Source of the DNA: a marine group bacterium Sva0996 bin134
Lineage (GTDB): Bacteria; Actinomycetota; Acidimicrobiia; Acidimicrobiales; Bin134
Reading direction: 5' to 3'
Assembly: GCA_002239105.1 (NCBI GenBank)
Contig: MPNQ01000006.1
Location: forward strand, 69,880-133,879
DNA length: 64,000 nt
Shown here: in pieces, positions 26,023-45,215 of the stretch
Numbering within the stretch: the stretch's first letter is position 1
Layout: each line of letters starts with the position of its first letter
Translations under genes and position numbers: made by a program
The notes under the pieces: generated by a model
The model's input: the letters and a program-made list of their open reading frames with translations, nothing else
Databases searched by the model: none
Told to the model about the DNA's origin: nothing

Positions 26023-26171
26023 CTCCACCCATTGCCTCCCGTTCGAGTCCGGGGGCATTCTCCGTTTGGCTATTGCTTCCACAACCGAAACACCAAGCAA
26101 TTGCTTAGATATCCGCTTGCTTTCAATACAAAAAGTTAGACGCTCGAATAGCGCCCGTCACGATATCCTAT

Positions 26172-28746: not shown

Positions 28747-29136
28747 TCACCAAAGAACCTGGACGGGGAACTCTCGGAACGCGGCATCTCTGGTCACTAA
28801 CACAAGCGATTCCAACTCCGCTTGGGCTGCCAGCATCCGGTCGAACGGGTCCCGGTGATGGGACTTATAGCTGCCAGCGCGCAGTCCGTGCTGGTAGGTG
28901 ACCGGCAAATGCCGCATCGATGCGTCTATCACGAACTCGTTGAATCGCAACACAGCGCCTTTATATTCAGGCAGCCGGCCGAGCCGAAACTTGGTGGCCA
29001 CTTCCCACGCGCTCGCCGCGCTAACGAAGACGTCGTTTCCCGAATCCCTCAGCGCTTCTTCCGCACTCGGCGACAACGCCGGATTCTCCGACCACCACCA
29101 CAGCAGCGCATGAGTGTCGAGCAGCAGGTCACTCAC
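28747..29136 (-). CDS. vapC: PIN-domain ribonuclease toxin
   Basis: ORF 28747..29217 trimmed to GTG 29136, which overlaps the antitoxin stop (GTGAGTGA). LLLDTHALLWW, SAASAWEV and HRDPFDRMLAAQA are PIN acidic-residue contexts. Confidence 0.8.
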   Translation of the reverse strand: MSDLLLDTHALLWWWSENPALSPSAEEALRDSGNDVFVSAASAWEVATKFRLGRLPEYKGAVLRFNEFVIDASMRHLPVTYQHGLRAGSYKSHHRDPFDRMLAAQAELESLVLVTRDAAFREFPVQVLW

Positions 29137-29374
29137 CTGAGTACGCGCCCTCCCACGCTGCAAGCTCCTCTTCTGGCAGCGGCTCAAAAAACTCCGGGCC
29201 CAACTCAAGTCCAGCAAGCTGCCCGGATCGCCTCTTTTCGCGTGGCGGCAGCGGCATCAGCCGAGCATATGGCTTGCCCGCTTTGGCCAAGATGATCTCT
29301 TCGCCTCCATGGGCTCGTTCCAAAAGCTTCGACAAATGGGTTTTTGCCTCGTGAACATTGACCATCTCGGTCAT
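29129..29374 (-). CDS. Phd/YefM-type antitoxin
   Basis: MTEMVNVHEAKTHLSKLLERAHGGEEIILAKAGKPYARLMPLP. GGAGGA (rc of 29381-29386) lies upstream. Confidence 0.8.
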   Translation of the reverse strand: MTEMVNVHEAKTHLSKLLERAHGGEEIILAKAGKPYARLMPLPPREKRRSGQLAGLELGPEFFEPLPEEELAAWEGAYSGE

Positions 29375-29411
29375 GATTGATCCTCCTGCCTGGTAGTTTG
29401 CACTTGTGAAT

Positions 29412-29445
29412 ATGACTTAGTCCGATGACTAGACTAATTATGACA
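29412..29445. promoter_or_regulatory. repeat-rich AT-rich divergent control region (candidate antitoxin operator / jet promoter)
   Basis: ATGACT (29412-17), ATGACT (29425-30) and ATGACA (29440-45) are direct repeats. TTAGTC (29417-22) forms an inverted repeat with GACTA/GACTAA (29427-37). The region lies between the divergent phd-vapC and jetC starts. Confidence 0.3.
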
Positions 29446-29473
29446 ACTCACTGCGTCAATAGAATGCGAGGGA

Positions 29474-32400: not shown

Positions 32401-33769
32401 CCGAAGCAAGTTGGAAGAAGCAGAAGCCCGCTTGCCAATCATCCGAAATGAGCGCGACGAAGCCGTCGGACGACAAGCTGACGCGCGAGCCGCAGCCAGC
32501 ACCGCCGCCGACCGACGAGTCGCGGCCGAGCAGGCGTGTGAGGAAATGCGTCAATCGCTGGCCACGACGTTGTCGGTGCCAGGACTTCGTGCTGCCGTAG
32601 CCGGACCCCACCATCCGGCTGCCAGGCCGGTTGCCTCGACTGCGACTGGTGCCGAGGGTCTGCACGAGCAGATCGAGACGGTCGAAAACCTGTTGGCCTT
32701 CGATCCGGCCGGCGATGCCGCAGCAGCATCCTCAACCCCTTCGCCACAGTCACAAGACCCCGCGTCTGCCGACAAGGCCGACATTGCCGTGGTCACAGCC
32801 GACGGGGTCCGGCAGTCGCTAAGGCAGCGCCGAGACGCACTAGGCGCCGGCTGGGATGCAGATACCCGCCAGCCCGATCCCAAACAGCCGCTCTCCATAG
32901 AGGTGACCGGCCCACTGGGCAAATCACCGCTAGCCGAGGCAGCACAGACGGTGGCTGAGCAGCACCAACGACTCGCGGGCCTGCTCAGCCATAAGCAAGA
33001 CACCGCCCTTCGCGAGCTGTTGCAGGGACTGGTCGCCCGCGAGGTGGCGAAGAAGGTCCGCGGGGCACAGCGGCTAGTCGAGCTGATGAATCAGCGGTTG
33101 GGCACGGTAACGACGGCTCACCGTGTTGGCGTGCGGCTGCGGTGGCGGCGCTCTCCCGAACTCGACCAGGCAACCGCCCGCATGGTCGATCTGCTCGCGA
33201 CCCTCCCCGACTTGCGAACCGAAGACGACGAGCAGGAGCTGCGCCGGACGCTGTCCGACCGGCTGAACGAGGCTCGGGCGCTGCAACCCGACGTGCCCTA
33301 TCGACAGCTCATCGCCGACACGCTCGACTACAAGAAATGGCACGATCTGTCGGTGATGCTGAGCCGACCGGGCAGCAGCGACGTCAAGCTCGGGCGCAAC
33401 ACCCCACTGTCAGAGGGCGAGAAGAAGCTGGTCACCTACCTGCCGCTGTTCGCTGCCGTGGCCGCGTCCTACGACGCACTGGCTGAGCGGGACAGCTCAT
33501 CGAGCGACATGCCACCGGGTATCGCCCGCTTCATCCTGCTTGACGACGCGTTCTCCAAGGTGTCCGAAGACAACCATGATGCGCTGTTCGGGCTGCTCGT
33601 CGCTTTGGATCTCGATCTGATCGCCACCAGTGAGCGGCTGTGGGGCACGCACCGCAGCCTCCCCGAACTGGCGATCACCGAGGTCGTGCGGGATGCGAGC
33701 CTCAACACAATCCTCCTCGAGCACTACCGATGGGACGGCGCCACCCTAGAGCTCCGGGACACGGCATGA
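29474..33769 (+). CDS. jetC: Wadjet JetC-like SMC/ABC ATPase (TIGR02680-like)
   Basis: 1431 aa. Walker A LLLRGVNGSGKSTAMNMLLPFLL, more than 900 aa of Ala/Glu/Arg/Leu-rich helical middle, signature-like LSEGEKK, Walker B RFILLDDAFSKV. Start uncertain: GTG 29474 has no spaced SD, and in-frame GTGs occur at 29525 and 29549. Confidence 0.85.
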   Translation: MIFALAKLSPPSTNLPGVADAGTRVVGESSAGIDVTRQRWRLNRAGIVNVYQYQDEVLHFRGGRLLLRGVNGSGKSTAMNMLLPFLLTARQGRIDAAGEQSGILKSWMLNGRDDAQPVGYLWIEFKRRGDFLVCGCGIKASRSSDTVTTWWFITSKRPGIDFRLVEQNIPLPTEGLRAALDGDLVFNHRQRRDYRAEVERRLFNGASIDQHIGLINVVRNPRVGDRIDVELPQHLIDALPQLSEQALAEAAQPLDDLEEHRGNVAELDQTLKSVRGLLDVYQAYCVTELRQRVADGNNRLDIKQNRSQEEARAQQEAAAAQVEVGRLDDEISKLEDDSRQLTSEVAALEESQIYRDGQELDALRQLVANLESQQVSAATRVADHTKRVERSARELTQARQQSQDDANKLNAELAAATELGQRCRIDRQPPGPVALDETDLDGANLSCPTENFDSEAIGRQIATANGSVLNRRADVEKVDTALASLESAEQQLSLAESAMQMAAHASEAASRRLAEQHQRLGDARREWTVQTRQWAVAIQPLLDKASINAPTIAAFASSGADDRESTVVDRQTDPLGTTSTGPAAGSREAEQTVLLSEAEALVGHWRDAVAAVDQRLLVEWAALEEAQAQFDELAARSEPEPPRLEWQTGADHCLADLIDFAPHLDEREQASLEAALYASGLLSASLGDDSAVELANGELVALVAGGVSHPLSEHLTVTVPDRLIGEVDEGLVAKLLESISCDLSSNASTAVSLNGTFWVGSLRGHHTKGQAEFVGGTARRAALDRARREGGDYLAQAQAVVSASEAEKAECQASLDQARRHLSSVPPTSEIVAASAQVDAATAASDEAESERAAAAKRAAEAEDRSIRASNVLQQTATTLALPADRGGLAHLSTELGDLQASLDRCGALLDALGRSVEGWRYAVARWRTEVDDLDAEKAAERAIQAKYHREHTRLATIESSIGADYADILEARDLCRSKLEEAEARLPIIRNERDEAVGRQADARAAASTAADRRVAAEQACEEMRQSLATTLSVPGLRAAVAGPHHPAARPVASTATGAEGLHEQIETVENLLAFDPAGDAAAASSTPSPQSQDPASADKADIAVVTADGVRQSLRQRRDALGAGWDADTRQPDPKQPLSIEVTGPLGKSPLAEAAQTVAEQHQRLAGLLSHKQDTALRELLQGLVAREVAKKVRGAQRLVELMNQRLGTVTTAHRVGVRLRWRRSPELDQATARMVDLLATLPDLRTEDDEQELRRTLSDRLNEARALQPDVPYRQLIADTLDYKKWHDLSVMLSRPGSSDVKLGRNTPLSEGEKKLVTYLPLFAAVAASYDALAERDSSSSDMPPGIARFILLDDAFSKVSEDNHDALFGLLVALDLDLIATSERLWGTHRSLPELAITEVVRDASLNTILLEHYRWDGATLELRDTA

Positions 33770-35322
33770 CCGACGTCGCCCGTTTCAGCGGCCCCAACAG
33801 CGATCCGGCTCAGGCCCGGTACTTGTTCCGCTACCTGGGCGGTGACGAGTGGCTCGAGTACCGGGCAATCCTCAGGGTGTTCGCCAGCACGTTCTTCGCT
33901 GAGTTCACTCCTCAGGAGGTGGAATCCGCGGTTTCCCCCGCCGGCATCGATCCATCCGTGGTTGCCGACCGGATGGAGAGCCTCCGCCGCTGGGGCAACC
34001 TCACCGTGTCATCATCGGTGGGCAACCCATCGAATCTCGACGACTACTACCGCAAGCGCAACCGCTACCTCATCTCCCGCGCCGGGCAGGAGGTGTTCGA
34101 TCTAGTCGAGCAGGTTCTAGCCAATGTAGATGAGGTCGGCGATGTGCAGGCCGGTCGGCTGCGTGACCTTCATCTCGCCCTCCAGACGCTGAATGAGCAG
34201 AGCAAGGTCGGCTTCGACCGCGTCGACAGCCAAGACCTGGCCGACGTGGTTAGGAAGGTGTTCGATCTCCACAAAGCCTTCACCAACGAGCTGACGCAGT
34301 TCTTCACCGAGCTCAACCAGTGGCAGAGCCGCTATGACCTAAATGCCGACGAAGTCCAGTTCTTCGCCGGCGTGCTGGTGGATTACGTCCACGAACAGCT
34401 CACCGAGATCGAGCGCATGACCCGGCCGATTGCCCGGACACTAGAGGAGATCCTCCCGCAGGTTGCGGCCCTGCTTCCTGCGCTGCGATCCGGCTTGGCC
34501 GTGCGAGTGGAGGAGGCTGGACTGGCCCAGAACGTGGCTGTGCGGCGGCTAGCGGGCACGGAGGTTGCCGACTGGAAGCACCTTGAGGCATGGTTCTCCG
34601 CACAGCCGGGTCAGGCGTCAAGGCTCGACGAGCTGACCCGACAGGCGGTAGCCGCGGTGCGCACTCTTACCGCCAATGTCACCCGGCTGTCGCGGGTCGG
34701 GCTCGGCGCGGCATCAAGACGATCTGACTTTGTGCGACTGGCGGGCTTCTTCGACCAGGCCGCTTCCTCCAACGAAGCCCATCAGATAGCGGCTGCTGCG
34801 TTTGGGCTAGGTTCGTGCCGCCGATTGGGGGAGCAGTCCGCCGACTCGGACGACCCTGCTCCAACAATCACGCCATGGAAGGATGCGCCCCGCGCCATCG
34901 TCCCGGTGGCGATGCGGGAGCGCGGCGAGACCGCCCCGCGCGGCCTGACGACTCCGATCAATGACCGAAGGCATGAGCGAGAACTATTGCGCCGCCACCG
35001 AGAGCTCAACCGCGTCGCCCGCGAGACCGCAGCAGCCGACCTGTTGGCCTGCGCGAGCGACGACGGGCAGATCGACGGTGCCCGGTTGTCGGCTGCCTCG
35101 TTCTCAATGCTGCGCGACCTCATCAGCCGTTCGGGATTGCGGATCGGCATCGACTCCGACCGCCGGTTTGCAACCGAGGTTGGAATCCGTTGCGAGGTGC
35201 AGCGGAACGAGGATGCCCGCACCGTCGTCCACTGTCCCGAGGGCAAGCTCTCGATGCACGGACTCATCGTCATCATCACCCCGGCAACAGAGAACAGCGC
35301 TGCCACCTCGGCATCCCCATGA
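33766..35322 (+). CDS. jetA: Wadjet JetA-like protein (TIGR02677/DUF2397-like)
   Basis: ORF 33640.. trimmed to ATG 33766, overlapping the jetC stop (ATGA). The N-terminus ARYLFRYLGGDEWLEYRAILRVFASTFFAEFTPQEV matches my memory of the DUF2397 N-terminal pattern. Confidence 0.7.
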   Translation: MTDVARFSGPNSDPAQARYLFRYLGGDEWLEYRAILRVFASTFFAEFTPQEVESAVSPAGIDPSVVADRMESLRRWGNLTVSSSVGNPSNLDDYYRKRNRYLISRAGQEVFDLVEQVLANVDEVGDVQAGRLRDLHLALQTLNEQSKVGFDRVDSQDLADVVRKVFDLHKAFTNELTQFFTELNQWQSRYDLNADEVQFFAGVLVDYVHEQLTEIERMTRPIARTLEEILPQVAALLPALRSGLAVRVEEAGLAQNVAVRRLAGTEVADWKHLEAWFSAQPGQASRLDELTRQAVAAVRTLTANVTRLSRVGLGAASRRSDFVRLAGFFDQAASSNEAHQIAAAAFGLGSCRRLGEQSADSDDPAPTITPWKDAPRAIVPVAMRERGETAPRGLTTPINDRRHERELLRRHRELNRVARETAAADLLACASDDGQIDGARLSAASFSMLRDLISRSGLRIGIDSDRRFATEVGIRCEVQRNEDARTVVHCPEGKLSMHGLIVIITPATENSAATSASP

Positions 35323-36521
35323 ACCCCGCGTCTGCTCCAACAAATTCGGCTGACCCTCAACAGAAGCTGGACATCCGCACCGCGGCCCGTCATCTCGTCC
35401 GATATCCCCTCGTGTTGGCCGAGAACGATCCGGAGATGCTCCTGCTGATCCGCCGTCACGAACAGGCCCTCGATAGTTTATTCACCCGGCGGTTCGGATA
35501 CCGCCTTCAAGTGACCGCCGACACCGCCCGTCTGTTCAAATCGTCGGTGGTCGCCCACCGGCGTCCGCTGCTGACCGCAACCAGCCAAGGACGACCGTTT
35601 TCCCAGCGTGAGTACACAATGCTCGCCCTATCCCTGGCCGCGGTCGCCGCCGGACCGAGCGTGATCAGCTTGCGCGATCTTATTCATGAGGTCCGCTCCG
35701 CTGCCGCTGATGCCGACATCACCCTCACCGAGGAGCCAACCGACCGCCGAGCCCTGGTCACCGCCTTGAAATGGATGATCCAGAACGGCATAGCGAGCGA
35801 GATGCACAATCAAGTCGACCGCTATGCCGCCGACGAAACCGCCGATGCCGTGCTTAGCGTTCGCCCCGACCGCGTCGCGCTGCTGCCGCTCCCGGCGCTG
35901 GCCCGATCAGAGACTCCCGAGCAGGTACTCGACCGGTCCGATCAGCGACTGTCGTCACGAGCGTGGATGCGCTCTGTCTTGCTGGAAGAGCCGGTGCTGT
36001 TTCGCTCCGACCTCACCGACAGCGAGTGGTCTGAGCTTCGGCAGCGGCTGGGGGAAGAAGCCGCTGTTTTCGACGACATGTTCGGTCTGCACCTCGAATC
36101 CCGCGCCGAGGGCATCATGGTTATCGACCCCGAGAACGAGCTGACCGACAGCCGCTTCCCGCGCAGCGGAACCCTCGGCCACGCCGCCCTGCTGCTCATA
36201 GACCGGCTTGTCCACCTAGATCGAACTCCAGCCGATGTGCCGCCCGGCAGCGGCACTGACGACGATCTCAACTCGGTCAACGCCGGCCGCGTCCCGTTCT
36301 CCCGTACCGATGTCATCGACGTGGTGGCCAGCCTGGCCGCTGAGCACCGCCCCCGCTACTGGTCACAAGATGCCGACAACCCTGAACGCCTCACCGTCGA
36401 TGTCCTTGATCTGCTCTGCGACCACCGCCTAGTGGAAGTGGACGGCGATGTGGTCTGGCTGCTGCCGCCTGCCTGGCGTTACTCGTTAGACGTCCAATAC
36501 CAGCAAGAGTCGCTGCTTTGA
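35319..36521 (+). CDS. jetB: Wadjet JetB-like protein (TIGR02678/DUF2398-like)
   Basis: ORF 35190.. trimmed to ATG 35319, overlapping the jetA stop (ATGA). AARHLVRYPLVLAENDPEMLLLIRRHEQALDSLFTRRFGYRLQVTADTARLFK. Confidence 0.7.
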   Translation: MNPASAPTNSADPQQKLDIRTAARHLVRYPLVLAENDPEMLLLIRRHEQALDSLFTRRFGYRLQVTADTARLFKSSVVAHRRPLLTATSQGRPFSQREYTMLALSLAAVAAGPSVISLRDLIHEVRSAAADADITLTEEPTDRRALVTALKWMIQNGIASEMHNQVDRYAADETADAVLSVRPDRVALLPLPALARSETPEQVLDRSDQRLSSRAWMRSVLLEEPVLFRSDLTDSEWSELRQRLGEEAAVFDDMFGLHLESRAEGIMVIDPENELTDSRFPRSGTLGHAALLLIDRLVHLDRTPADVPPGSGTDDDLNSVNAGRVPFSRTDVIDVVASLAAEHRPRYWSQDADNPERLTVDVLDLLCDHRLVEVDGDVVWLLPPAWRYSLDVQYQQESLL

Positions 36522-37744
36522 GCTCCCGCCCCGTCCCAGAGTCGCTGCTCTCCCCTGGCCTGGGCGAGGTCTGGTCCGCCGCACGCCACCGACTCGACCG
36601 CTACGGACCCCAACGGCGAGGCTCCATCGCCAGCCCGGGGCTCGACCCGGCGAGCACCCTGGCCATGGAATCGCTGCTGGGACGAAAACCGGCCAAGCGG
36701 CTGGATCTCCAAGAGTTGGAGGCGGCACTGGTGGCCCGGGCCATCGGCCGCGATCTCTGTGATGCGCTCACCTGCCTTGGCCATCCTCCATCGGCTGAAG
36801 CCGCCCAACGGCGATCTGACCGCGCCCGCGCTCAGGAAGCCCGAGAGTCATTGCACTGCGCCGTCGCAGTCTGGGACGAGCCGTGGGCCGCGGCCTGGGC
36901 CGATGCGGTTGTGGGGGCCGGACTGCTACGGGATTTCGACGGTGAAAGCGCCGCCCGTCTCGCCACCGATGTTCGCCGCCTGCTCGACCATATCGAGCAC
37001 CCCCAATTCTCCGCCTCCAGCCGCACAGAGATTGCCGCCACCCTCTACGGGTCGGCGCACGCACTCGACTCGGGCACAAGGCGGGCCAGCGCGGCGACCC
37101 ACGCTTTACGCCATCGGAACGGCCCTCTCGGTGAGCGAGAACTCTGGGAGGCAGCCGGCATCCTGCCTGATCGGGTCTCGGCCCCCGCGCTTGTCTGGTC
37201 GCTCCCGACCGACGGCGCTTCGCCGTTGGACATGCACGTCCGATTTGCCCTCCATGCTGGGCTGCCCCTTCACATCAGCTTGTTTGCCCTGCGAAAGCAC
37301 CCCATCTCTGTAGATGCCGGCACCCCTGTGCTCGTCGTTGAGAACCCGAGACTGGTCGAGGCCGCGGCCGAGTGCAGCCTTCCAGCCTGCGTGATCTCTT
37401 CCAACGGCAACCCCTCCACCGCGGTCACCACCCTGCTGCGCCAACTCCAGCAAGCCGAGGCATCCCTCTGGTATCACGGCGACTTCGACTCGCCGGGCAT
37501 AGCCATCTGCCGCCGAATGCACGAATTCGGCTGCTCCCCGTGGATGATGGATGCCCGCGATTACGCCGACGCAATCGGGCAAGCGAAGGAGTCAGATGTG
37601 CAGCTCATGTCAGATTCCAAGGAATGCGGCCCAACCCCATGGGATCCAAAGCTCCAACCGGCGTTTGATCACCACCGCCTCATCATCCACGAAGAGTTCG
37701 TGCTCGATGCCGTTCTCAACCGATTCGGCCGACTCAACCAATAG
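36518..37744 (+). CDS. jetD: Wadjet JetD-like Toprim nuclease subunit (TIGR02679/DUF2399-like)
   Basis: The TTG start overlaps the jetB stop (TTGA). N-terminal LLSPGLGEVWSAARHRLDRYG. C-terminal VLVVENPRLVE...LWYHGDFDSPGIAICRRM is Toprim-like. Confidence 0.8.
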   Translation: MSSRPVPESLLSPGLGEVWSAARHRLDRYGPQRRGSIASPGLDPASTLAMESLLGRKPAKRLDLQELEAALVARAIGRDLCDALTCLGHPPSAEAAQRRSDRARAQEARESLHCAVAVWDEPWAAAWADAVVGAGLLRDFDGESAARLATDVRRLLDHIEHPQFSASSRTEIAATLYGSAHALDSGTRRASAATHALRHRNGPLGERELWEAAGILPDRVSAPALVWSLPTDGASPLDMHVRFALHAGLPLHISLFALRKHPISVDAGTPVLVVENPRLVEAAAECSLPACVISSNGNPSTAVTTLLRQLQQAEASLWYHGDFDSPGIAICRRMHEFGCSPWMMDARDYADAIGQAKESDVQLMSDSKECGPTPWDPKLQPAFDHHRLIIHEEFVLDAVLNRFGRLNQ

Positions 37745-37761: not shown

Positions 37762-38517
37762 TCACCAAGTGGGGTTGGTGAGAATGCCGCCGTCCACCAC
37801 CAGATCAGCCCCGGTGATCCACCGGGCCAGATCGGAGCACAAGAACACGCAGGCGTCCCCTACGTCTTCGGGGGTGCCCATCCTCCCCAGGGGCACGACG
37901 GCCATCCAGCGCTCCACGCCCTCAGACCAGTCTTCGGCCAAGCCGGGGCGGTCGATCAGCCCCGGCGACACCGAATTGACCCTGATGCCATGGGGGCCCC
38001 AAGCCAGAGCTGCGGCTTTGGCGTGCATGACGAGACCTGCTTTGGAAGTGGCGTAGTGGCCGTGAACCGGGGTGGGGTGCTGGGCCTCGATGGAGGCAAC
38101 GTGGACGATGGATCCGCCGGTGCCCTGGTCCCGCATAACTGAGGCCGCCGCCTGGGTCAGCCGATGCACCGCGGTGAGGTTGGTGTCGATCATCTCGCCC
38201 CACTGCTGGTCGTCGAGCTCGGTGAACGGAGCCACCGGCTGGATCCCGGCGTTGTTGACCAGCGCGTCGATGCGGCCGAAGTGCTCTCGGGCCGCGCTCA
38301 CTACCGCCGCTGGGCCTTCATTGTCGGTGAGGTCGGCCCGCACCTCCACCACCTCTCCCCCGCTCTGGTCGACAGCTGACGACCGGGTATGGGCCACCAC
38401 CGAGGCCCCGGCCGCTGCCATGCGCCGGATGATCCCCGCCCCAATACCGCCGCCCGCGCCGGTGACCACCACCACCCGCCCGGTTAGGTCGATCTGCTCC
38501 GCAGGAGAGGCAGTCAC
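37762..38517 (-). CDS. SDR family oxidoreductase
   Basis: ORF 37762..38643 trimmed to GTG 38517, overlapping the cupin stop (GTGA). VVVVTGAGGGIGAGI, NNAG, YATSKAG. Confidence 0.8.
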   Translation of the reverse strand: MTASPAEQIDLTGRVVVVTGAGGGIGAGIIRRMAAAGASVVAHTRSSAVDQSGGEVVEVRADLTDNEGPAAVVSAAREHFGRIDALVNNAGIQPVAPFTELDDQQWGEMIDTNLTAVHRLTQAAASVMRDQGTGGSIVHVASIEAQHPTPVHGHYATSKAGLVMHAKAAALAWGPHGIRVNSVSPGLIDRPGLAEDWSEGVERWMAVVPLGRMGTPEDVGDACVFLCSDLARWITGADLVVDGGILTNPTW

Positions 38518-38990
38518 ATGCGTACCAGTTTCGCTATCTCGGCTGAGGCCGCTGGATACTGCTCGGTGAGATGGTCTCCCACACCTAGTTCGAAGCCATC
38601 GTGATGGTAAGGCGGCGCCATCGTGGTCCCCACCAGAGACCACTCACCCCGGGTCGAGGCCCCCATCCATGTGTGGCCCGGAACCACCACGCAAGGCCTC
38701 TCTCCCCCACCCAAGTCGTCGCCCAAAACCGGCCGATCTACCTTCCCATCCGCCCCCAGCAGCAGCATCTCCACCGCTGCCCCCGCATAGTGATGCCACA
38801 ACTCCGGCCCAGCCAGCCGGTGCATAGCCGAGAAGTCCCCAGGCTGAAGCAGGAAATAGATGGCCGTGCTCTTGTCATCCCGCCAAATCTCCCGCCACAC
38901 GCCTCCTTCCTCCGACAATGGCTCCAACCCCAGCATGGCCACTACCTCCGCGCCGGTCAGCCCCGCCAAGTCCTCCCTCTGCCCCATCAC
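38514..38990 (-). CDS. cupin domain protein (DUF985-like)
   Basis: 158 aa. LEPLSEEGGVWREIWRD...IYFLLQPGDFSAMHRL...ELWHHYAG is the cupin beta-barrel pattern. Confidence 0.65.
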   Translation of the reverse strand: MMGQREDLAGLTGAEVVAMLGLEPLSEEGGVWREIWRDDKSTAIYFLLQPGDFSAMHRLAGPELWHHYAGAAVEMLLLGADGKVDRPVLGDDLGGGERPCVVVPGHTWMGASTRGEWSLVGTTMAPPYHHDGFELGVGDHLTEQYPAASAEIAKLVRM

Positions 38991-39088
38991 CCACCGACCC
39001 TAGCTTTCCCACTGCTTAGATCTGATCGCAGTGCGCACAAGGAATGACACTGCCTCCATCCCACCTGGCTCTATGGAATCTGCTTCGT

Positions 39089-39454
39089 CTAGCTGGAACT
39101 CCTTTGAGCCTTTTCGCAGGGCGGACCCCAAGGGCCTCTGACAGGGAGAGCCTTGAAATTCCACAGCCCTTTCTTGGGCGAGGCATCACCTCGTTTGCTG
39201 TTCGCAAGCCAGTCGCGATTCTTCCGGTTCGATGGCGGGTTGAGACTCAAGAACTTGATGAGGTCGATTGCCGCAGCCTCAACAAGCTCAGCGGTCTTCT
39301 CATCCATGCCATGTCGGAGGACGAAACTCTGGTCTCTCTTGTGGTCCCAGACCCGGTTGCCACTGCCCTTCCCTACGTACACCTCCCCGGTTTCCGTGTT
39401 GTAGGTGAAGTACACATAGTGAGCGAGGTCATCTTGCTCTTTGCGAGTGAACAT
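39089..39454 (-). CDS. GIY-YIG nuclease-domain mini-protein (possibly a truncated remnant)
   Basis: AHYVYFTYNTETGEVYVGKGSGNRVWDH...RHGMDEKTAELVEAAAIDLI fits the GIY...YVGKGxGxR...H...E pattern. The last ~45 aa are low-complexity basic sequence with no recognisable domain. Confidence 0.5.
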   Translation of the reverse strand: MFTRKEQDDLAHYVYFTYNTETGEVYVGKGSGNRVWDHKRDQSFVLRHGMDEKTAELVEAAAIDLIKFLSLNPPSNRKNRDWLANSKRGDASPKKGLWNFKALPVRGPWGPPCEKAQRSSS

Positions 39455-39726
39455 CCCTGGACTCCTTTCTGTTCACGATGTGGCCATGAAACCTAGATCG
39501 GGCCCAGATAACAAGACAGTTGCAATTCAGTTGGACTCGGGCGACAGTGGAATTGCCCGCCTGTACTGGTCGGGCGGGCAAACGCGAGTCCCGGAGTGCC
39601 AGGCCGAGGACCCCTACAGGAGGGTCGACTAGGACGGGAGCCGGGGCTTCCGCACTCTGACGGACGGTTGCTCGACGGCTGTCTGGATTCCCCAAAATTG
39701 TCACAGCCTAGAAGTAGGGTCGTGTT

Positions 39727-40677
39727 GTGGATTCAAGAGGCAACTCTGAGGGCGCTGAAAGTCACCAGATCCCCCTTCGCGGAAACGAATCCCCCGCCAT
39801 TACGTCAAATCTCCAGCCAGGGCTACATACTCGACTGGATGTGGGTGTAGATGGTCCGCTGGATGAGCTGAGTGGCCCCCTATTGGTGTGTGGCCCGGCG
39901 ATCGAAGCCTTGGGATTGCTCCCAGATGGGTGTGTGCAGACTGTAGTGACATCGCCGCCGTACTGGTCGCTGCGGGATTACTCGGCCGAAGGCCAGATTG
40001 GCCGCGACGACGCTTTGGGGGAATACGTCAAGAGCATCGTCATGGCGTTCGACCAGGTACGCCGGGTGCTGACCGACGATGGCACGGTATGGCTGAACGT
40101 GGGCGACTCCTACACCTCAGGAAATCGCAGGTACCGGGCGCCTGACCGCAAGAATCGGGCTCGGGCTATGGCGGTTCGGCCTCCCACGCCAGAGGGATTG
40201 AAGCCGAAAGACCTGATCGGCGTTCCGTGGCGGCTGGCATTCGCCCTCCAGGATGCGGGCTGGTGGCTGCGCTCCGAAGTCATCTGGTACAAGCCCAACG
40301 CCCACCCCGAGTCGGTCTCCGACCGCCCCACTAAGTCTCATGAAACCGTGTTCTTGCTATCCAAGAGCCAGGACTACTACTACGACACGTCAGCAGTGAA
40401 AGGCCCGAACGGACGCCGGCTACGAACTATGTGGGACATCAACACTGAACCTCGCAGAAAAGAGGCTGGTGGAGTCGAAGATCACCCGGCCGTCATGCCG
40501 ATGACCCTGGCTCGCCGCTGCATCCAAATCACGAGCCAGCCGGGAGACACCGTCCTCGATCCCTACGCCGGCTCTGGCACGAGCCTTATTGCCGCCCAAG
40601 AACTCGGCCGCAACTGGGCGGGAATCGAGTTGAACCCCACCTACGTCGACCTAATCGAGCGCCGGGTCAACGAGTGA
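39727..40677 (+). CDS. beta-class DNA methyltransferase, SPPY type (probable N4-cytosine)
   Basis: Catalytic motif IV VVTSPPYW comes first and the SAM motif I DTVLDPYAGSGTSLIAA lies near the C-terminus, which is the beta permutation. The true start is probably an internal GTG near 39844 (VGVDGPLDEL...). Confidence 0.85.
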   Translation: MDSRGNSEGAESHQIPLRGNESPAITSNLQPGLHTRLDVGVDGPLDELSGPLLVCGPAIEALGLLPDGCVQTVVTSPPYWSLRDYSAEGQIGRDDALGEYVKSIVMAFDQVRRVLTDDGTVWLNVGDSYTSGNRRYRAPDRKNRARAMAVRPPTPEGLKPKDLIGVPWRLAFALQDAGWWLRSEVIWYKPNAHPESVSDRPTKSHETVFLLSKSQDYYYDTSAVKGPNGRRLRTMWDINTEPRRKEAGGVEDHPAVMPMTLARRCIQITSQPGDTVLDPYAGSGTSLIAAQELGRNWAGIELNPTYVDLIERRVNE

Positions 40678-41450
40678 GCCAGCGGTACGACAAATTCATC
40701 GACCAGGCCAACCTCAAGGCCAGCATTGAATCCCTCACCCCAATGGGTGTCAGGTTCGTGGGCCGGATCATTGACTCGTTATCATCCCCACTCCAGGCCG
40801 AAACCTCTGACACCTGGCTAGGACAGACGCCTGGATGGATCGAATACTTCGGCCTCTCCATCTCCGTTCATCATGGAACCACCACAGAGCCTCTCGGCCT
40901 TGTCAGCTTCGAAGTCGCATTCCGCAACGCCTGTGAGGCGGTTGGCTGGACAGTCGACGAGCCGGGATCAGCCACACAGCGCTTCGTGGACATGGCGGTC
41001 CAAACCGACGATAGTGAAGAGCGAAGGCTCTCCCTGAAATCCACCGCCGCCCAAAGGTTGTCCGAAACCACCGCCCACATCTCCAAGCTCACCGAGGCCG
41101 CCTGGATCCAAGATGTCCGAAATGCCAGAACCAGGCGGGACCACACTCTCGACCTATTCCGTCAATACCGATCCGCCGTAGACGCCATCATCATCCTCCG
41201 AGCATTCCGCCCCGACCGCGCCGCCGTCCCAACCAAGTACCAACTCCTCGAAATCCCCACCGATATCTTCGCCACCCTCGAAGATGCCCCCCTAGCCGCG
41301 TTCGCCGCCGATGGCCCCACTATCGACTGCACTTACCATGGCGATCCAGCTGCTGCCCGCGTCTCCCTCGACCGCGCCGACGCCAAGATCACCATCAAAC
41401 AAATCAAACTCTCAGCCTGCACCCTCCACGCTGAATGGCAGATCACTTAG
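40674..41450 (+). CDS. hypothetical protein, putative cognate type II restriction endonuclease
   Basis: The GTG start overlaps the methyltransferase stop (GTGA 40674-40677). 258 aa with no family recognised by eye. There is only a weak PD-(D/E)xK-like candidate (FVDMAV...RRLSLKS). Confidence 0.4.
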   Translation: MSQRYDKFIDQANLKASIESLTPMGVRFVGRIIDSLSSPLQAETSDTWLGQTPGWIEYFGLSISVHHGTTTEPLGLVSFEVAFRNACEAVGWTVDEPGSATQRFVDMAVQTDDSEERRLSLKSTAAQRLSETTAHISKLTEAAWIQDVRNARTRRDHTLDLFRQYRSAVDAIIILRAFRPDRAAVPTKYQLLEIPTDIFATLEDAPLAAFAADGPTIDCTYHGDPAAARVSLDRADAKITIKQIKLSACTLHAEWQIT

Positions 41451-41525
41451 GCCTTCCCAATCATCTTCGAGCAATTTACAGATCACGCCAAAAGAAACTC
41501 TGCCCTGCCCCACCACTACATCGAC

Positions 41526-41557
41526 GATGCTTCAAGAACCGCGACTCTTGAAGCATC
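41526..41557. terminator. bidirectional hairpin between convergent operons
   Basis: Perfect 12-bp stem, GATGCTTCAAGA (41526-37) with TCTTGAAGCATC (41546-57), and an 8-nt loop. It lies between the stops at 41450 (+) and 41569 (-). No clean U-tract. Confidence 0.55.
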
Positions 41558-41568
41558 TAACATATAAT

Positions 41569-44016
41569 TCAATTCCTTGGTAAAACAAGATTGTAAAAGA
41601 TCTGGCTACAATCACAACGCAATGCGTCAGGCTGTTTTGGCCCACTTATGTAGACCCATCCCTGACATTCAGAGCATTGGAATAATGATAATAGATCTGT
41701 TGCAGCTCCGACTAAGTCCGCAACATCCGAAGAATAAAAATTGGCCCACTCATTGTAATGTATAGCCTTGTTGAGCACCCAATTGTCATCCTCGTAATCT
41801 GTGACAATGTTCATGCGCTTCTTATCCAATTGATCCAACGCCCTCTTCGACTCTTCGTCATTCCACGAATTGGCAATGTTACGGGCTTTACCAATCAATT
41901 TGCCATACCTCCCAACGACTGCAGAATACAGATCTCCTAAGTCGTAGTCTCCATCCGACCGGTACGGAATTGGAGCCCGCAGACCATTAGCAAGTTCAGC
42001 CATCGCGAATTCCAAGTGATTTCGTAACGTGAATGAAGCATCTGAAATGTTCCCGACACTTATCTGATGTTCGATCTTCTGCCAAACCTCTATCTGCTCT
42101 TCATAGGTTGGCCCTGTATCAATTGTCCAGCTATGAAACGTGGCACACGACTGAGCGGTAACCAGCCCATGATGTCGCATCTGCGAGGCCCACACTCTGT
42201 CGTGCGTAGTGATTATGAACTGGGTATTTGGAAATCTAGTTTTCAATAGGCGGCAAAATTCTTTTCGATGACCTGAATCGACAGACATAACCACATCATC
42301 CAATATTGCAAGAGAAAACGTTTCACTATGTAAATGATTCATCAAGGCGAGATAAAGACAAACCCCCAGTGCGTCTTGATGTCCTTCACTGTGATATGCC
42401 GAAGGGGGATAGTACCCTTGCCCAAAAAAGTCTACAGTCAATCCGAGTTTGCCCTCCTGGGGACTAAACTGGGCACGAAAACTGGACTCATCATCGGAAT
42501 TCAACAGACTATAGAACAGGCTAAAGTCACTTTCAACTTCTTCGTACAGTTGTGTGAGCACAGACTGTGCTTCATCACAATATACATCGTAAATTGAATT
42601 GGCGATAAGCGCTACACCCTCTGCATGTGAAGCCCTGTTCAACGCTTCCACATATTTCATGTAGCGATCTTGGGCAATAGTCAAAAATGTCTGCGCGTGG
42701 TGTTTTGCGTCTAAATCGGGCATGGCATCAATTGCAGCTTTCAGCTTTTCGAGAGACAGCACTAACTCGTTAGGTATAGCCATCCACCCCGTTGAAAGTC
42801 TATCTTGTCGGCGCAAAGCTCCTTCTACAGTCTGTAGGTCATGTACCAATTGGGAGAGATCCTTTGCCCATGTGTCCAACAAAGCCTTCAGGTCGCTAGC
42901 ACCCTCTCTTGACGCGATATTGACAACAGGACCAATAAGACCTTCAATTGAAGCAACACCATTAGCAATATTCTCTGCCGCTTCCTTGAACTGGATCTGA
43001 CGAGCTTCAGTATCCTCAAGTTGCATTATCTTAGTCCTCAAGTGAGTCTCAAGGTCACTTTGTGATTCCCAGCTAACGTCGCAAAATGGGCAGTTGGCCG
43101 TGTCAATGAGTTCGACTCCCTGTTGCAGGAAAGGTAACTGTTTGAGATGTAGGAGTATACTACGGTCCTTATCTATCTCCTTGCACACCCCGACCAATGT
43201 TGCAATTGATGGCGCCAATAGATCAGACCCGCGGAGGCGTTCTAGAAGTGAATTGATATCGTTCTGGGCAGATACCTTGTTGAAAGGCTTAACTTCCTGT
43301 TCAACTTTAACCCCGTCATCCAAAGGAGTACTTTCGCTCAAATGAGATAAGTCTTCCAAACCCAGTACTTTCCGTTCATCATTACACGCTTGGACTGCGA
43401 TTTCCTCTTCAAAATCGTCTATTCCCAAGTGCGTACAAAGAGACTTCGCTGCGTCAGTTGCGTTTTGGAGTTTGGTCTTGTGATCCCCTTTTATCTTGTT
43501 TTGTACTGACTTTAATATGGCTCGAGTCGCTCCAATGTTGTCCAATCTCAAGAGGGCTTGGATTTCCTTAGATCGCTCTGTGGGTTCCGCCAAGATAAAT
43601 TTTATTACTTCACGCCTCGACAGCACAATCTCAGGATGACTCGCCACCTCTCTAAGAACTGTTCGTATTTTATCGTCGTCAGGATTCAATAGTGGTTGAT
43701 CCGGATCTTTGATCGACCGCGTGACAGTAACTACACGATCAAGGTCCAACAGTCTGATTTCTAGAGAGACCTGGGAATGTTCAAGGGGATTCTGTTGCAA
43801 TATATGTGGACCATGCCTCCGCACAGATAATGCTCCCGTGCCCTTACCCTTCAGTCTGGAAATGTTTCCTGTCAATCCGAATTCAATAGCGTCTACTACC
43901 CCGCTTTTTCCAGAACCGTTTGGGCCACATACTGCAAAAGATTTGGCATTCAAGTTCAATTGCAGGTCTCGGATACCTCTTAGTTCCTGTATTCTTACTT
44001 TCTCGATCTTTATCAT
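41569..44016 (-). CDS. Rad50/SbcC-like ABC ATPase with CxxC hook and C-terminal RloC/PrrC-like (R-x3-E...H) region plus zinc ribbon
   Basis: 815 aa. Walker A GPNGSGKS (31-38), helical middle with C309-P-F-C312, SEGHQ (543-547), Walker B SLAILDD (568-574), TTHD (603-606), R665-NHL-E669, H753, and C781-x2-C784-x16-C801-x-C803. The ATPase call is solid; the RNase inference is tentative. Confidence 0.75.
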   Translation of the reverse strand: MIKIEKVRIQELRGIRDLQLNLNAKSFAVCGPNGSGKSGVVDAIEFGLTGNISRLKGKGTGALSVRRHGPHILQQNPLEHSQVSLEIRLLDLDRVVTVTRSIKDPDQPLLNPDDDKIRTVLREVASHPEIVLSRREVIKFILAEPTERSKEIQALLRLDNIGATRAILKSVQNKIKGDHKTKLQNATDAAKSLCTHLGIDDFEEEIAVQACNDERKVLGLEDLSHLSESTPLDDGVKVEQEVKPFNKVSAQNDINSLLERLRGSDLLAPSIATLVGVCKEIDKDRSILLHLKQLPFLQQGVELIDTANCPFCDVSWESQSDLETHLRTKIMQLEDTEARQIQFKEAAENIANGVASIEGLIGPVVNIASREGASDLKALLDTWAKDLSQLVHDLQTVEGALRRQDRLSTGWMAIPNELVLSLEKLKAAIDAMPDLDAKHHAQTFLTIAQDRYMKYVEALNRASHAEGVALIANSIYDVYCDEAQSVLTQLYEEVESDFSLFYSLLNSDDESSFRAQFSPQEGKLGLTVDFFGQGYYPPSAYHSEGHQDALGVCLYLALMNHLHSETFSLAILDDVVMSVDSGHRKEFCRLLKTRFPNTQFIITTHDRVWASQMRHHGLVTAQSCATFHSWTIDTGPTYEEQIEVWQKIEHQISVGNISDASFTLRNHLEFAMAELANGLRAPIPYRSDGDYDLGDLYSAVVGRYGKLIGKARNIANSWNDEESKRALDQLDKKRMNIVTDYEDDNWVLNKAIHYNEWANFYSSDVADLVGAATDLLSLFQCSECQGWVYISGPKQPDALRCDCSQIFYNLVLPRN

Positions 44017-44018
44017 CC

Positions 44019-44186
44019 CTATGCTGATTCCTCTTGTTGGGTTAAGATCGCAATCAACTTCTCTGTCTCCGGCTTTTCACCCATTGATAATTGCTCCCGC
44101 AGTGATACAATAACTTCATCGGACAAGTCATGGTCGTCGCGGATCCGTTGCAGGGTTCTATCCAGTATTTCGTGTTCAATGGACAT
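44019..44186 (-). CDS. 55-aa acidic helical protein (not in ORF track), putative partner of the ATPase
   Basis: My translation: MSIEHEILDRTLQRIRDDHDLSDEVIVSLREQLSMGEKPETEKLIAILTQQEESA (14 D/E against 6 K/R). GAGAGG lies 6 nt upstream of ATG 44186. The TAG stop is 2 nt before the ATPase ATG. Same low GC as the ATPase. Confidence 0.45.
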   Translation of the reverse strand: MSIEHEILDRTLQRIRDDHDLSDEVIVSLREQLSMGEKPETEKLIAILTQQEESA

Positions 44187-44276
44187 CGACTACCTCTCTG
44201 CAAATGTGCAGTGTGCATCACATTATTGCCGTGCGGTCCTAATTCTGCCCAACCCAAAATGAGTCGATGAACGGCG

Positions 44277-45215
44277 TTATGGCTCCAGGACAACCTTGAT
44301 GGCGCCGGAGGCGCGGTCGGCGGCGGTGGCGAAGGCTTCGGCGGGGGCGTCTAGGGGGAAGCGGTGGGTGATGACGGCGTCGGGGAGCTCGGGGAGCTGG
44401 GCCAGGGCGGCGGCGGCGACATCCATGTCGCGGGTGGGGCCGTAGCGGCCGTACATGGAGGAGGGGACCACGGTGATCTCCTTCATGCTCAGCTCTATAC
44501 CGGGCATCTCAACGGGGTCCCAGTAAGAGCCCAGGATGACGATCTTTCCACCGGGCCGGCACTTCTTGGCGGCGTCGGCCAGAGCTGAGGCGGTACCAGC
44601 GGCCTCTACGACGATGTCGTAGGGCTCATCGGTCATCGGCGCGGCCCCCAGGCGCTCGGCGGCCTCCTTTTGGGCGTCGTGGCGGGCTGAAATAGCTGTC
44701 TCGCACCCGGCGAGGCGGGCCACGGCCAGCGCGGTCTGGCCCACGGCTCCGCCGCCGATGACGGCCACCCGCATGTCGCCCCGCAATCCGGCCAAGCGGA
44801 AGCCGTGCACCGCGATGCCCAGCGGCTCCACCAGGCATGCGTCCCGGGCATCGGCCCCCGACGGCAGGGGAACGATAGCCTCGGGCCACATGAGCACCTC
44901 GTCGGCCATGCCGCCATCGCGGGAGATGCCGGCGATGTCGGTCAGGGTGACCGGGCAGCGGTTGTAGTCGCCGGCCAGGCAGATCTCGCAGGTGCCACAG
45001 CCGTGGATGGGCTCGATGGCCACCGGGCGGCCGTCGTCCAGCCAACCAGCGAACTCGTGGCCAATGGTGAAGGTGTTGAGCATCCCCAACTCGAGCATGT
45101 GCAGGTCGGAACCGCATACCCCCGCCGAGGCCATCTTGATCCGGACGCCCTCGCCGTCGGGAGGCGGTACCTCCACAGTCGCGGGCTGGCCGTCGACGCA
45201 TCGCACTGCTCTCAT
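44277..45215 (-). CDS. zinc-dependent alcohol dehydrogenase (MDR family)
   Basis: GVCGSDLHM, GHEFAG, VAVIGGGAVGQTA. Confidence 0.85.
   Translation of the reverse strand: MRAVRCVDGQPATVEVPPPDGEGVRIKMASAGVCGSDLHMLELGMLNTFTIGHEFAGWLDDGRPVAIEPIHGCGTCEICLAGDYNRCPVTLTDIAGISRDGGMADEVLMWPEAIVPLPSGADARDACLVEPLGIAVHGFRLAGLRGDMRVAVIGGGAVGQTALAVARLAGCETAISARHDAQKEAAERLGAAPMTDEPYDIVVEAAGTASALADAAKKCRPGGKIVILGSYWDPVEMPGIELSMKEITVVPSSMYGRYGPTRDMDVAAAALAQLPELPDAVITHRFPLDAPAEAFATAADRASGAIKVVLEP

Follow-up and report, generated by a model that had tools for sequence, protein, structure and literature searches.

How have five genes, four of them of the nuclease, methylase or ATPase kind and all lying in DNA of reduced G+C content, come to sit between two housekeeping genes that carry no sign of an integrase beside them? 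The question is raised by the uncultured, sponge-associated bacterium Sva0996 bin134 ('Candidatus Poriferisocius', Acidimicrobiia), in a 64 kb stretch of contig MPNQ01000006.1 that is referred to here as the window. We favour a reading in which positions 38965-44274 represent a filled allele of a hotspot that recurs across the genus and collects defence and conflict genes; its content would have been built up in three or more steps inside an ancestral coupled operon, without site-specific recombination machinery, and we give this reading a rough probability of 0.8. For comparison, species-representative genomes were scanned with the flanking alcohol dehydrogenase (ADH) gene. About 35 loci were recovered, which belong to 'Candidatus Poriferisocius' and to related metagenome-assembled genomes (MAGs) of Acidimicrobiia, many of them on complete chromosomes. 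Loci of relatives are designated by L-numbers (L016 etc.), and 36 species-level loci were used for tblastn.

The insert and its immediate flanks consist of the following features, where MTase and REase denote DNA methyltransferase and restriction endonuclease, R-M restriction-modification and ORF open reading frame.

38514-38964, reverse strand: right flank, core of the cupin gene (Pfam Cupin_5, 1.3e-31)
38965-44274: entire insert, 5,310 bp in place of the 11 nt that genomes with an empty site have (breakpoints by blastn with L027, L029, L030, L031 and L049)
38965-39031, reverse strand: cupin leader of the filled allele (first ~9 codons plus 5' untranslated stretch), absent from empty alleles
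39032-39553: sub-slot b (between MTase and cupin), a lineage-restricted segment with a GIY-YIG-like ORF, G+C 0.548
39089-39454, reverse strand: GIY-YIG-like orphan gene, 121 aa (PADLOC PD-T4-3, E = 2.2e-8, residues 6-42 only)
39554-41454, forward strand: apparently old R-M block (promoter region, M, R), G+C 0.608
39727-40677, forward strand: type II DNA methyltransferase, 316 aa (Pfam N6_N4_Mtase 1.4e-49; PADLOC MTase_II 1.9e-101)
40674-41450, forward strand: SmaI-like type II restriction endonuclease, 258 aa (PADLOC REase_II 4.3e-14, residues 55-257)
41455-44274, reverse strand: sub-slot a (between ADH and REase), a low-G+C two-gene cassette with its own spacers, G+C 0.456
41526-41557: hairpin with a perfect 12-bp stem and 8-nt loop between the convergent ATPase and REase genes (inverted-repeat search)
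41569-44016, reverse strand: Rad50/SMC/LmuB-like ABC ATPase, 815 aa (Pfam SMC_N, AAA_23; PADLOC LmuB 1.6e-22)
44019-44186, reverse strand: acidic protein of 55 aa, pI 4.4, translationally adjacent to the ATPase (no family match in Pfam, PADLOC or NCBIfam)
44187-44274, reverse strand: upstream spacer of the cassette, with a weak sigma-70-like site at 44251-44222 (9/12 matches, a consensus match only)
44277-45215, reverse strand: left flank, zinc-type ADH (Pfam ADH_N, ADH_zinc_N), present in all relatives

A CoAT-ADH pair on one side and a cupin-SDR pair on the other mark this position in ~30 Poriferisocius loci. In five species (L027, L029, L030, L031, L049) the site is empty: the ADH match is separated from the cupin match by 17 nt, and the junction is identical in all five. 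In the more divergent L046 the two are 61 nt apart and the cupin has a short start too. The junction of L030 reads ...GAGCCG TAG cg ATG TCG..., which leaves 2 nt between the ADH stop codon and the cupin ATG. Because of this spacing we consider the ancestral locus to have been a coupled CoAT-ADH-cupin-SDR operon that was split by the insert. At the DNA level, homology of the window to the empty-site genomes stops at 44275 and restarts at 38964. As the ADH stop codon begins at 44277, the boundary on that side is exact, while on the cupin side it lies 26 nt within the annotated cupin ORF, so that the first ~9 cupin codons are assigned to the filled-type allele. The leader at 38965-39031 is common to all filled or remnant alleles; filled loci align to the window up to 39002-39031 and empty loci only from 38964, and the cupin of the empty-site genomes matches that of the window from residue 10 onward. 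An initial annotation of the window, made from its letters, had postulated an insertion between housekeeping genes, which the synteny comparison with the five empty sites bears out; it had set the borders at the ADH stop, which was exact, and at the cupin start, which was 26 nt off.

The insert is also set apart by its composition. In 400-nt windows outside it, G+C has a mean of 0.649 (sd 0.034), compared with 0.521 for the insert as a whole and with 0.548, 0.608 and 0.456 for the GIY-YIG segment, the R-M block and the ATPase cassette, respectively (z = -5.7 for the cassette). Tetranucleotide usage correlates with that of the rest of the window at 0.36-0.41 in the cassette and at ~0.66-0.73 in the R-M block (elsewhere 0.77 +/- 0.054), and third-position G+C is 0.87 in the ADH gene, 0.71 in the MTase and REase genes and 0.44 in the ATPase gene. 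A real and stepped drop against the flanks, as the initial annotation had described, was thus confirmed by sliding 400-nt G+C and tetranucleotide profiles; its figures need correction, however, from ~55% to 0.60-0.61 for the R-M pair and from ~33-45% to a uniform ~0.45 for the ATPase cassette. Only two other windows in the 64 kb fall below 0.56 G+C: 25901-26400, where a dip to 0.51 lies at the start of or just upstream of an MFS transporter gene, and 29101-29700, which overlies a Phd/PIN toxin-antitoxin pair. An assembly artefact can be excluded, as the same gene order was read on 16 contigs (exact ADH) and 24 contigs (exact ATPase) from independent ENA, JGI, Logan and NCBI assemblies.

Of the segments that make up the insert, the R-M block is an old resident. 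At least 13 species (L017-L021, L023, L033-L035, L037, L039, L040, L054) have it at this site with 81-90% nucleotide identity, the DNA match spanning window positions 39554-41443/41454, and the flanks of these species are 86-95% (ADH side) and 80-89% (cupin-SDR) identical to those of the window. The block has a G+C of 0.597-0.616 in every species that shares it, and its pairwise distances correlate with those of the left and right flanks (Spearman 0.55 and 0.56, p < 1e-3). Because locus and G+C are the same and the divergence is flank-like in at least 13 species, we read the R-M layer from its sequence as old and largely vertically inherited, with loss or degradation in some lineages: in L016 only 49 bp from the 3' end of the REase gene are left, and four loci (L024, L026, L038, L041) have kept the MTase alone, without the REase. 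The REase gene overlaps the end of the MTase gene by 4 nt. Enzymes with an SPPY motif are generally m4C (N4-methylcytosine) methyltransferases, and the translated MTase shows TSPPYW and DPYAGSGT; as SPPY precedes the motif that binds AdoMet (S-adenosylmethionine), it is taken to be a beta-class enzyme, probably of the N4-cytosine type. No relative of the REase was found in the PDB.

A separate observation on restriction sites concerns CTGCAG (PstI-type), the most under-represented 6-bp palindrome in the window outside 38965-44274 (2 seen vs 13.4 expected). It is similarly rare in the relatives L016-L049, both with a local R-M system (7 vs 51.6 expected) and without one (8 vs 45.1). The avoidance is genus-wide and unrelated to the insert, and it suggests that CTGCAG is, or once was, the target of a restriction system encoded at some other place.

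On the cupin side of the R-M pair, sub-slot b differs from one lineage to another. The MTase-to-cupin gap is ~520 bp in the window but only ~58-62 nt in L018, L019 and L038, and the segment filling it has no DNA match in any species representative, nor does its ORF have a tblastn match in the 36 species-level loci. In a collection of 5.8 billion sequences the 121-aa protein has relatives in two clusters only, both of 121 aa and 83% and 69% identical to it; the gene of the latter adjoins the cupin gene at the same position (L061), alongside an R-M pair. Its N-terminus also matches the GIY-YIG protein of PDB entry 9u75 (E = 8e-5, residues 9-42), while a match to Pfam LEM-3_GIY-YIG stays under the cut-off. 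We regard the ORF, judging by these relatives, as an intact, lineage-restricted mini-gene and its assignment as a nuclease as tentative. Thirteen loci have, instead of this ORF, a gene for an XRE-type helix-turn-helix (XRE-HTH) protein in the same sub-slot. The XRE-HTH gene (133-160 aa) occurs twice in L021, at 11373-11816 and 13877-14278, where the copies flank the R-M pair, and is missing from the window; its recurrence may reflect a controller protein or a repeatedly used recombination substrate.

On the other side of the R-M pair, the two-gene cassette in sub-slot a has the same orientation as the ADH gene. In L017, L037 and L040 the REase gene abuts the ADH gene, at a distance of 16-37 nt compared with 2.8 kb in the window, which is why we regard the cassette as an insert. 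Neither the ATPase nor the 55-aa ORF has a tblastn match in the 36 species-level loci, and the closest relatives of the ATPase were all found at the same position: in L054 (51% amino acid identity, with flanks 95% and 90% identical at the nucleotide level), in L059 (62%, on a contig that starts with the ADH 3' end) and in L060 (61%, followed by an REase that is 86.5% identical). These three cassettes have a G+C of 0.45-0.46 and spacers that are unrelated. Altogether, six Poriferisocius ATPase proteins form one clade of three groups, with 50-61% identity between groups and <=46% to anything else, and the coiled coil is the part that diverges fastest among the alleles. Since such deep divergence stands beside flanks that differ by 5-11%, we think that whole cassettes have been replaced, or that a long-standing polymorphism has been maintained, rather than that the genes diverged in place. 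The hairpin at 41526-41557 would, from its place between convergent genes, be a likely terminator, although a scan for T-tailed terminators did not pick it up. The idea of an integron cassette was rejected, as this sole hairpin has no attC-like features and is absent from the spacers of the other alleles.

Across the relatives the slot between ADH and cupin ranges from 17 nt to >6.2 kb, its G+C is 0.52-0.63 in every filled locus as against ~0.69-0.70 for the ADH gene, and its cargo differs between species. Besides the genes described above, the following were found (IS, insertion sequence).

L034: 641-aa AriA-like ATPase (PADLOC AriA 1e-54)
L028: type ISP/IIG R-M enzyme and IS481 transposase
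L020: DUF4143/AAA_14 ATPase
L043: Fic/DOC protein
L022: IS1595 and IS110 transposases, Dam-like methylase and ImmA/IrrE-HTH protein
L028 and L054: a two-ORF element to which no function is assigned (237 or 275 aa plus 206 aa)

That defence genes dominate this cargo was judged from the gene lists; IS elements occur in the slot of some species only. A core defence hotspot has been described as a site at which the core genes on both sides are conserved and the defence cargo between them varies, with a reduced G+C and without a single backbone of a mobile genetic element (PMC10250203), and by its gene content and sequence the slot between ADH and cupin appears to be a core-gene-flanked defence hotspot of this known kind.

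Two relatives carry what look like traces of how such slots turn over. In L054, a degenerate duplicate of the ADH 3' end (~270 bp, at 5494-5749) with two internal deletions lies between the two-ORF element and the ATPase cassette. Its identity to the ADH is 88-90% whichever lineage is compared, L054 itself included; in L028 the same two-ORF element follows directly after the ADH gene. From its sequence we interpret this duplicate as the fossil of a flank-anchored insertion. A mirror-image scar on the right flank is present in L026, where a partial duplication of the cupin 5' end (12053-12391, 16802-17269) brackets an insert of ~4.4 kb. For the hotspots of Pseudomonas aeruginosa, transfer by homologous recombination through conserved flanks was proposed by the authors who described them (PMC10250203).

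The assembly we envisage would have begun with entry of the R-M pair early in the genus, followed by mostly vertical inheritance and by loss or degradation in some lineages. The GIY-YIG-like gene would have been added in the sub-slot between MTase and cupin, and the low-G+C cassette of the 55-aa protein and the ATPase in that between ADH and REase, where alleles would then change by replacement of the whole cassette. Turnover of the slot would depend on DNA uptake followed by recombination that uses the conserved flanking genes as anchors, with occasional IS activity. Dedicated mobility functions were searched for throughout: Pfam detected no integrase or transposase domain in any ORF of the insert, there is no tRNA gene within 27-48 kb, direct and inverted repeats in 38.7-44.5 kb are limited to short pairs at chance level, none of which pairs both junctions, and Rfam gave no match in the insert at E <= 0.1. 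An integrase-mobilised island or a prophage remnant was therefore rejected, there being no integrase, tRNA, attachment (att) target or flanking repeats.

These results also bear on what had been proposed at the outset. That integrase, transposase, tRNA and flanking repeats are lacking agrees with the Pfam, tRNA and repeat searches, the check for att-like repeats included, and the suggestion of two or more acquisition events is strengthened by three segments that vary independently. The cargo is indeed mostly of the conflict type, but the initial annotation counted all five genes as nuclease, methylase or ATPase, which holds for four, the 55-aa ORF matching no family. Its term 'foreign island' is apt for the ATPase cassette, a strong outlier, but not for the R-M layer, which has the same locus and ~0.60 G+C in at least 13 species, a finding that the initial annotation itself had named as one that would speak against its reading.

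Several points weigh against the history we favour. Every genome compared is a MAG or a metagenome contig, and homologous replacement is deduced from the scars in relatives and not from the window itself. In a neighbour-joining tree of 4.7 kb of flanking sequence the empty-site species are not monophyletic but nested among R-M-bearing ones, which implies several losses or gains, or movement of alleles between species. Distances show no gradient towards the junction that would speak for recent recombination tracts, and empty alleles are not disproportionately alike there. The three deep cassette alleles have all stayed at ~0.45 G+C within genomes of 0.65-0.70 despite a protein divergence of 40-50%, and taken alone the R-M block is only a mild compositional outlier (z = -1.2). 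Some of the functional assignments are also exposed. The REase match to Pfam SmaI (PF17411; 1.3e-4, 21.9 bits) is under the cut-off of 27.3, and CCCGGG has an observed/expected ratio of 0.74 in R-M-positive and 0.72 in R-M-negative loci; such equal, mild depletion amounts to no specific avoidance and leaves SmaI specificity unsupported. The recognition sequence may differ from CCCGGG, the SmaI label denoting a resemblance of fold or family only. The GIY-YIG assignment is based on ~35 residues (an N-terminal GIY...YIG...R motif in the first ~40), and the effector role considered below for the C-terminal domain of the ATPase is a guess made from its sequence, for which no homologue or fold match is detectable.

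In part the same data would fit a region that is not foreign but ancestral to the genus, with empty sites as secondary deletions and low G+C as the result of functional constraint. The R-M pair, with its mild G+C deviation, has the same locus and composition in at least 13 species, and the nesting of empty-site among R-M-bearing species on the flank tree would be expected. We nevertheless hold this to be improbable, as all five empty genomes share one junction that keeps the 2-nt coupling, an unlikely outcome of independent deletions, the more divergent L046 has a short junction with the short cupin start as well, and the ATPase cassette is an extreme compositional outlier that is absent from nearly all species. 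A single mobile island that brought in all five genes by one insertion, its G+C steps reflecting gene-specific composition, would explain why the genes are contiguous and fixed in every contig of the population, but is so remote a prospect that it can be set aside: the segments occur separately (R-M alone beside ADH in L017, L037 and L040, R-M with other cargo, the GIY-YIG-like gene with R-M in a different lineage, L061, and no ATPase in 36 species representatives), and integrase, att and tRNA features are lacking.

Beyond cupin and SDR, a second variable region lies between the SDR gene and a 3-hydroxyacyl-CoA dehydrogenase (HCDH) gene.

28747-37744: second hotspot (between SDR and HCDH), with a Phd/PIN pair and Wadjet type II
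28747-29374, reverse strand: Phd/PIN toxin-antitoxin pair (Pfam PIN, PhdYeFM)
29474-37744, forward strand: Wadjet type II in the order JetC-JetA-JetB-JetD (PADLOC JetC2 1.3e-270, JetA2 1.1e-126, JetB2 1.3e-89, JetD2 1.8e-94)

The Wadjet system is complete, with JetA2 (DUF2397), JetB2 (DUF2398), JetC2 and JetD2 (DUF2399) all present; the usual gene order of Wadjet is A-B-C-D. Occupancy of the two slots varies independently, as L016 has Wadjet without R-M and L019 has R-M without Wadjet or the toxin-antitoxin pair; the sister lineage L054 has the toxin-antitoxin pair only, and Wadjet is absent from many relatives. On this distribution we consider the SDR-HCDH slot to be a second, independent hotspot, so that the ~15-kb defence island of the initial annotation, broken only by SDR and cupin, resolves into two separate ones.

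An observation of a different kind was made on the ADH gene. In four MAGs of Vicinamibacterales/Vicinamibacteria (Acidobacteriota; L044, L045, L047, L048) the ADH is 75-80% identical to that of Acidimicrobiia, and these loci are without CoAT, cupin or SDR neighbours. Gene transfer between phyla, possibly between co-resident symbionts, may account for this.

What the cassette in sub-slot a might do is a question of its own, as its ATPase belongs to a large family. More than 1,100 full-length relatives were found, nearly all of 813-818 aa, and the family counts about 1,000 clusters at 50% identity; the relatives come from Acidobacteriota, Planctomycetota, Gemmatimonadota-like 'Palauibacter', Bradyrhizobium and others, and are annotated merely as 'AAA family ATPase'. 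Invariant in the family alignment are Walker A, the signature, Walker B and the H-loop, a CPxC zinc hook (C309/C312) at the apex of the coiled coil and, in the C-terminal part, R665-x-H667-x-E669, W746/N749/H753/W757 and cysteines 781, 784, 801 and 803. An AlphaFold2 model (predicted local distance difference test score, pLDDT, of 80.5) comprises an ABC head with a long, antiparallel coiled coil and, towards the C-terminus, a bundle of five helices plus a small ribbon. In Foldseek it retrieves the heads of SMC, Rad50, condensin and cohesin, with LmuB of type II Lamassu (9uxh_F) at rank 27.

The C-terminal domain (~613-815), a helical bundle with a four-cysteine ribbon, reached a pLDDT of 78 when modelled alone. 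It has no fold match in the PDB (Foldseek best E = 0.44, to a generic helical bundle), no Pfam match even at E = 10 and no sequence match in the PDB. A profile of the domain run against 1.84 billion representative proteins gave 1,034 matches, and in the best 150 of these the domain stands at the C-terminus of ~815-aa proteins or of apparent fragments of them. Neither this domain, which distinguishes the module, nor the partner has a specific model in PADLOC 2.0, Pfam or NCBIfam.

The small partner is a constant companion of the ATPase. In all 13 contexts inspected, which span phyla, plasmids and two viral contigs, an acidic small ORF (55-78 aa, pI 4.1-6.2) either stops where the ATPase gene starts or runs into it, the overlap being 4 nt in 11/13; in L058 it measures 152 aa by the longest-ORF rule and 89 aa by gene call. 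The contexts hold the small ORF and the ATPase only, with no LmuA effector gene in any of the 13. Neighbouring genes include integrases, Abi_C with type I/IIG R-M and McrBC, IS66, genes of type IV secretion systems (T4SS), DUF262 with HipA, DarT, RES and TIR, and an N6-methylase with patatin. The module was found on 24 plasmids, of which 7 are predicted to be conjugative. None of 50,697 phage records matched it, and in 2.9 million viral contigs the full-length relatives numbered only 2, so that a phage origin of the cassette was rejected. Relatives of the module in other phyla (L056-L058) lie only 2-5 G+C points under their hosts.

Our working view of the cassette, for which we see a little under even odds, is that of an autonomous module for abortive infection or DNA sensing. 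The ATPase would dimerise through its zinc hook and, in the manner of Rad50 and LmuB, recognise DNA ends or DNA of foreign origin; a rearrangement driven by ATP would switch on the fused C-terminal domain (R665-x3-E669, H753 and the Cys4 ribbon), which would provide the output, while the acidic peptide, translated together with the ATPase, would be a regulator or antitoxin. A fuller version of this proposal remains tentative: that the 55-aa protein and the ~816-aa ATPase constitute a previously undescribed autonomous two-gene defence system, an effector-fused cousin of Lamassu and RloC that is widespread (many phyla, conjugative plasmids) and kept in Poriferisocius as a trans-species polymorphism of three ancient AT-rich alleles, swapped by flank-anchored recombination.

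Alternatively, the cassette may not act against phages but may be a selfish module for addiction or stability, or else a factor of mobile elements that resembles Rad50 and serves in DNA repair or maintenance, and may just hitch-hike in variable regions. This possibility, though we would not call it likely, deserves to be taken seriously, given the 24 plasmids (7 of them predicted conjugative), the vicinity of T4SS genes, integrases and IS elements, the Gene Ontology term for double-strand-break repair that annotation pipelines assign, a small acidic partner that resembles an antitoxin arrangement and the lack of a recognisable nuclease or other enzymatic effector domain. Yet the module is found repeatedly among defence and toxin genes (Abi_C, R-M, McrBC; DUF262, HipA; DarT, RES, TIR; patatin, MTase), the Poriferisocius slot is otherwise filled by defence systems, and deep allelic diversification that is fastest in the coiled coil is what is expected of immune loci. 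Addiction and defence can, moreover, coexist.

As an island, the locus exemplifies something already known, a defence hotspot that sits between core genes and lacks an integrase, yet it is resolved unusually well: about 35 species-level genomes reveal the empty site, an old R-M pair, two sub-slots that turn over independently and flank-anchored scars, all within what was once a translationally coupled operon. This makes it a small natural system in which to follow how defence loci arise and pass between genomes when no mobility genes of their own are at hand. Of greater value as a lead is the two-gene module, a large and phylogenetically broad family that resides among defence and toxin genes and carries no functional annotation. 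If it is a true immune system, it would provide a new effector or sensor domain for SMC/Rad50-based immunity (Wadjet, Lamassu, RloC).

How does the locus compare with systems already described? With cDHS1/2 of Pseudomonas aeruginosa (PMC10250203) and the defence-island hotspots of E. coli (PMC10121019) it shares a fixed position marked by core genes, variable content and size, mostly defence cargo, a G+C below that of the genome and, in the window, no obvious mobile-element backbone. It differs in that it operates at the level of a genus and not within one species, is much smaller, lies inside a coupled operon instead of between independent core genes, has two sub-slots flanking a long-resident R-M pair, and is accompanied by a second independent hotspot 1.2 kb away, beyond cupin-SDR. 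The R-M pair resembles SmaI-type systems in its operon of overlapping M and R genes, its beta-class SPPY MTase and an REase whose alignment to the profiles SmaI and REase_II (PADLOC) covers its length; unlike these systems, its REase stays under the Pfam gathering cut-off and CCCGGG is not specifically depleted. It has no controller (C) gene, the place upstream of the MTase being taken by an XRE-HTH gene in 13 related loci. With PD-T4-3, a single-gene GIY-YIG defence protein (PADLOC PDLC04031), the 121-aa ORF has the N-terminal GIY...YIG...R motif region in common, but it matches ~38 positions of a 256-position profile; as its few relatives all have 121 aa, we take it to be a distinct mini-protein and not a truncated PD-T4-3.

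Lamassu/ABC-3C (LmuA-LmuC-LmuB; bioRxiv 10.1101/2025.03.14.643221, PMC12663957) has in common with the module an ABC ATPase of the Rad50 kind, whose coiled coil is folded and bears a zinc hook, as well as a small accessory protein and a location in defence islands. One might thus see the cassette as a Lamassu system, perhaps a degenerate one, and LmuB is indeed the best PADLOC match (1.6e-22, profile positions 2-593 of 611), has the same Rad50-like architecture and zinc hook (bioRxiv 10.1101/2025.03.14.643221) and appears in Foldseek as 9uxh_F at rank 27. But Lamassu needs the LmuA effector and usually LmuC (bioRxiv 10.1101/2025.03.14.643221). The module has no LmuA gene in 13/13 contexts, and for this reason we have not filed it as Lamassu; its partner measures only ~55-70 aa and shows no sequence relation to LmuC models, and the 55-aa protein has no PADLOC, Pfam or NCBIfam match that would place it with LmuC, the middle component (classes MC1-MC8). 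Fused to its ATPase is a C-terminal helical and zinc-ribbon domain of 200 aa, which is exclusive to its own family and not in the LmuB profile, and SMC and Rad50 structures outscore LmuB in Foldseek. We therefore regard membership of Lamassu as improbable.

The same applies to the RloC-type anticodon nucleases, defined by a Rad50-like head, a CX2C zinc hook and an Arg-X3-Glu-X36-52-His triad (PMC2610378), in which a C-terminal tRNase is the output. Like RloC and PrrC (PMC2610378, PMC3458546), the ATPase is a single chain of ~800 aa (815 vs 804 aa) that joins a Rad50-like ATPase, whose coiled coil bears a CxxC hook, to a helical domain at the C-terminus in which an invariant Arg-x3-Glu is followed by an invariant His, features also known from RloC (PMC2610378), and R-M linkage is occasional in both, R-M systems adjoining the ATPase here and in Palauibacter. 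In contrast to RloC and PrrC, it has an obligate small upstream partner, which goes unmentioned in PMC2610378 and PMC3458546. The spacing from Glu669 to His753 is 83 residues, outside the 36-52 of RloC and PrrC, and the C-terminal domain is without sequence or profile homology to theirs: its profile, among the best 150 of 1,034 matches in 1.84 billion proteins, retrieves its own ~815-aa family only, and a fold search of the PDB gave no HEPN-like match. Pfam AAA_13, to which we take PrrC and RloC to belong, gives 18.6 bits where its cut-off is 36, and matches over the coiled coil only. Triad spacing, AAA_13 score and profile search together led us to reject membership of RloC, with which the ATPase may nonetheless share an analogous way of working.

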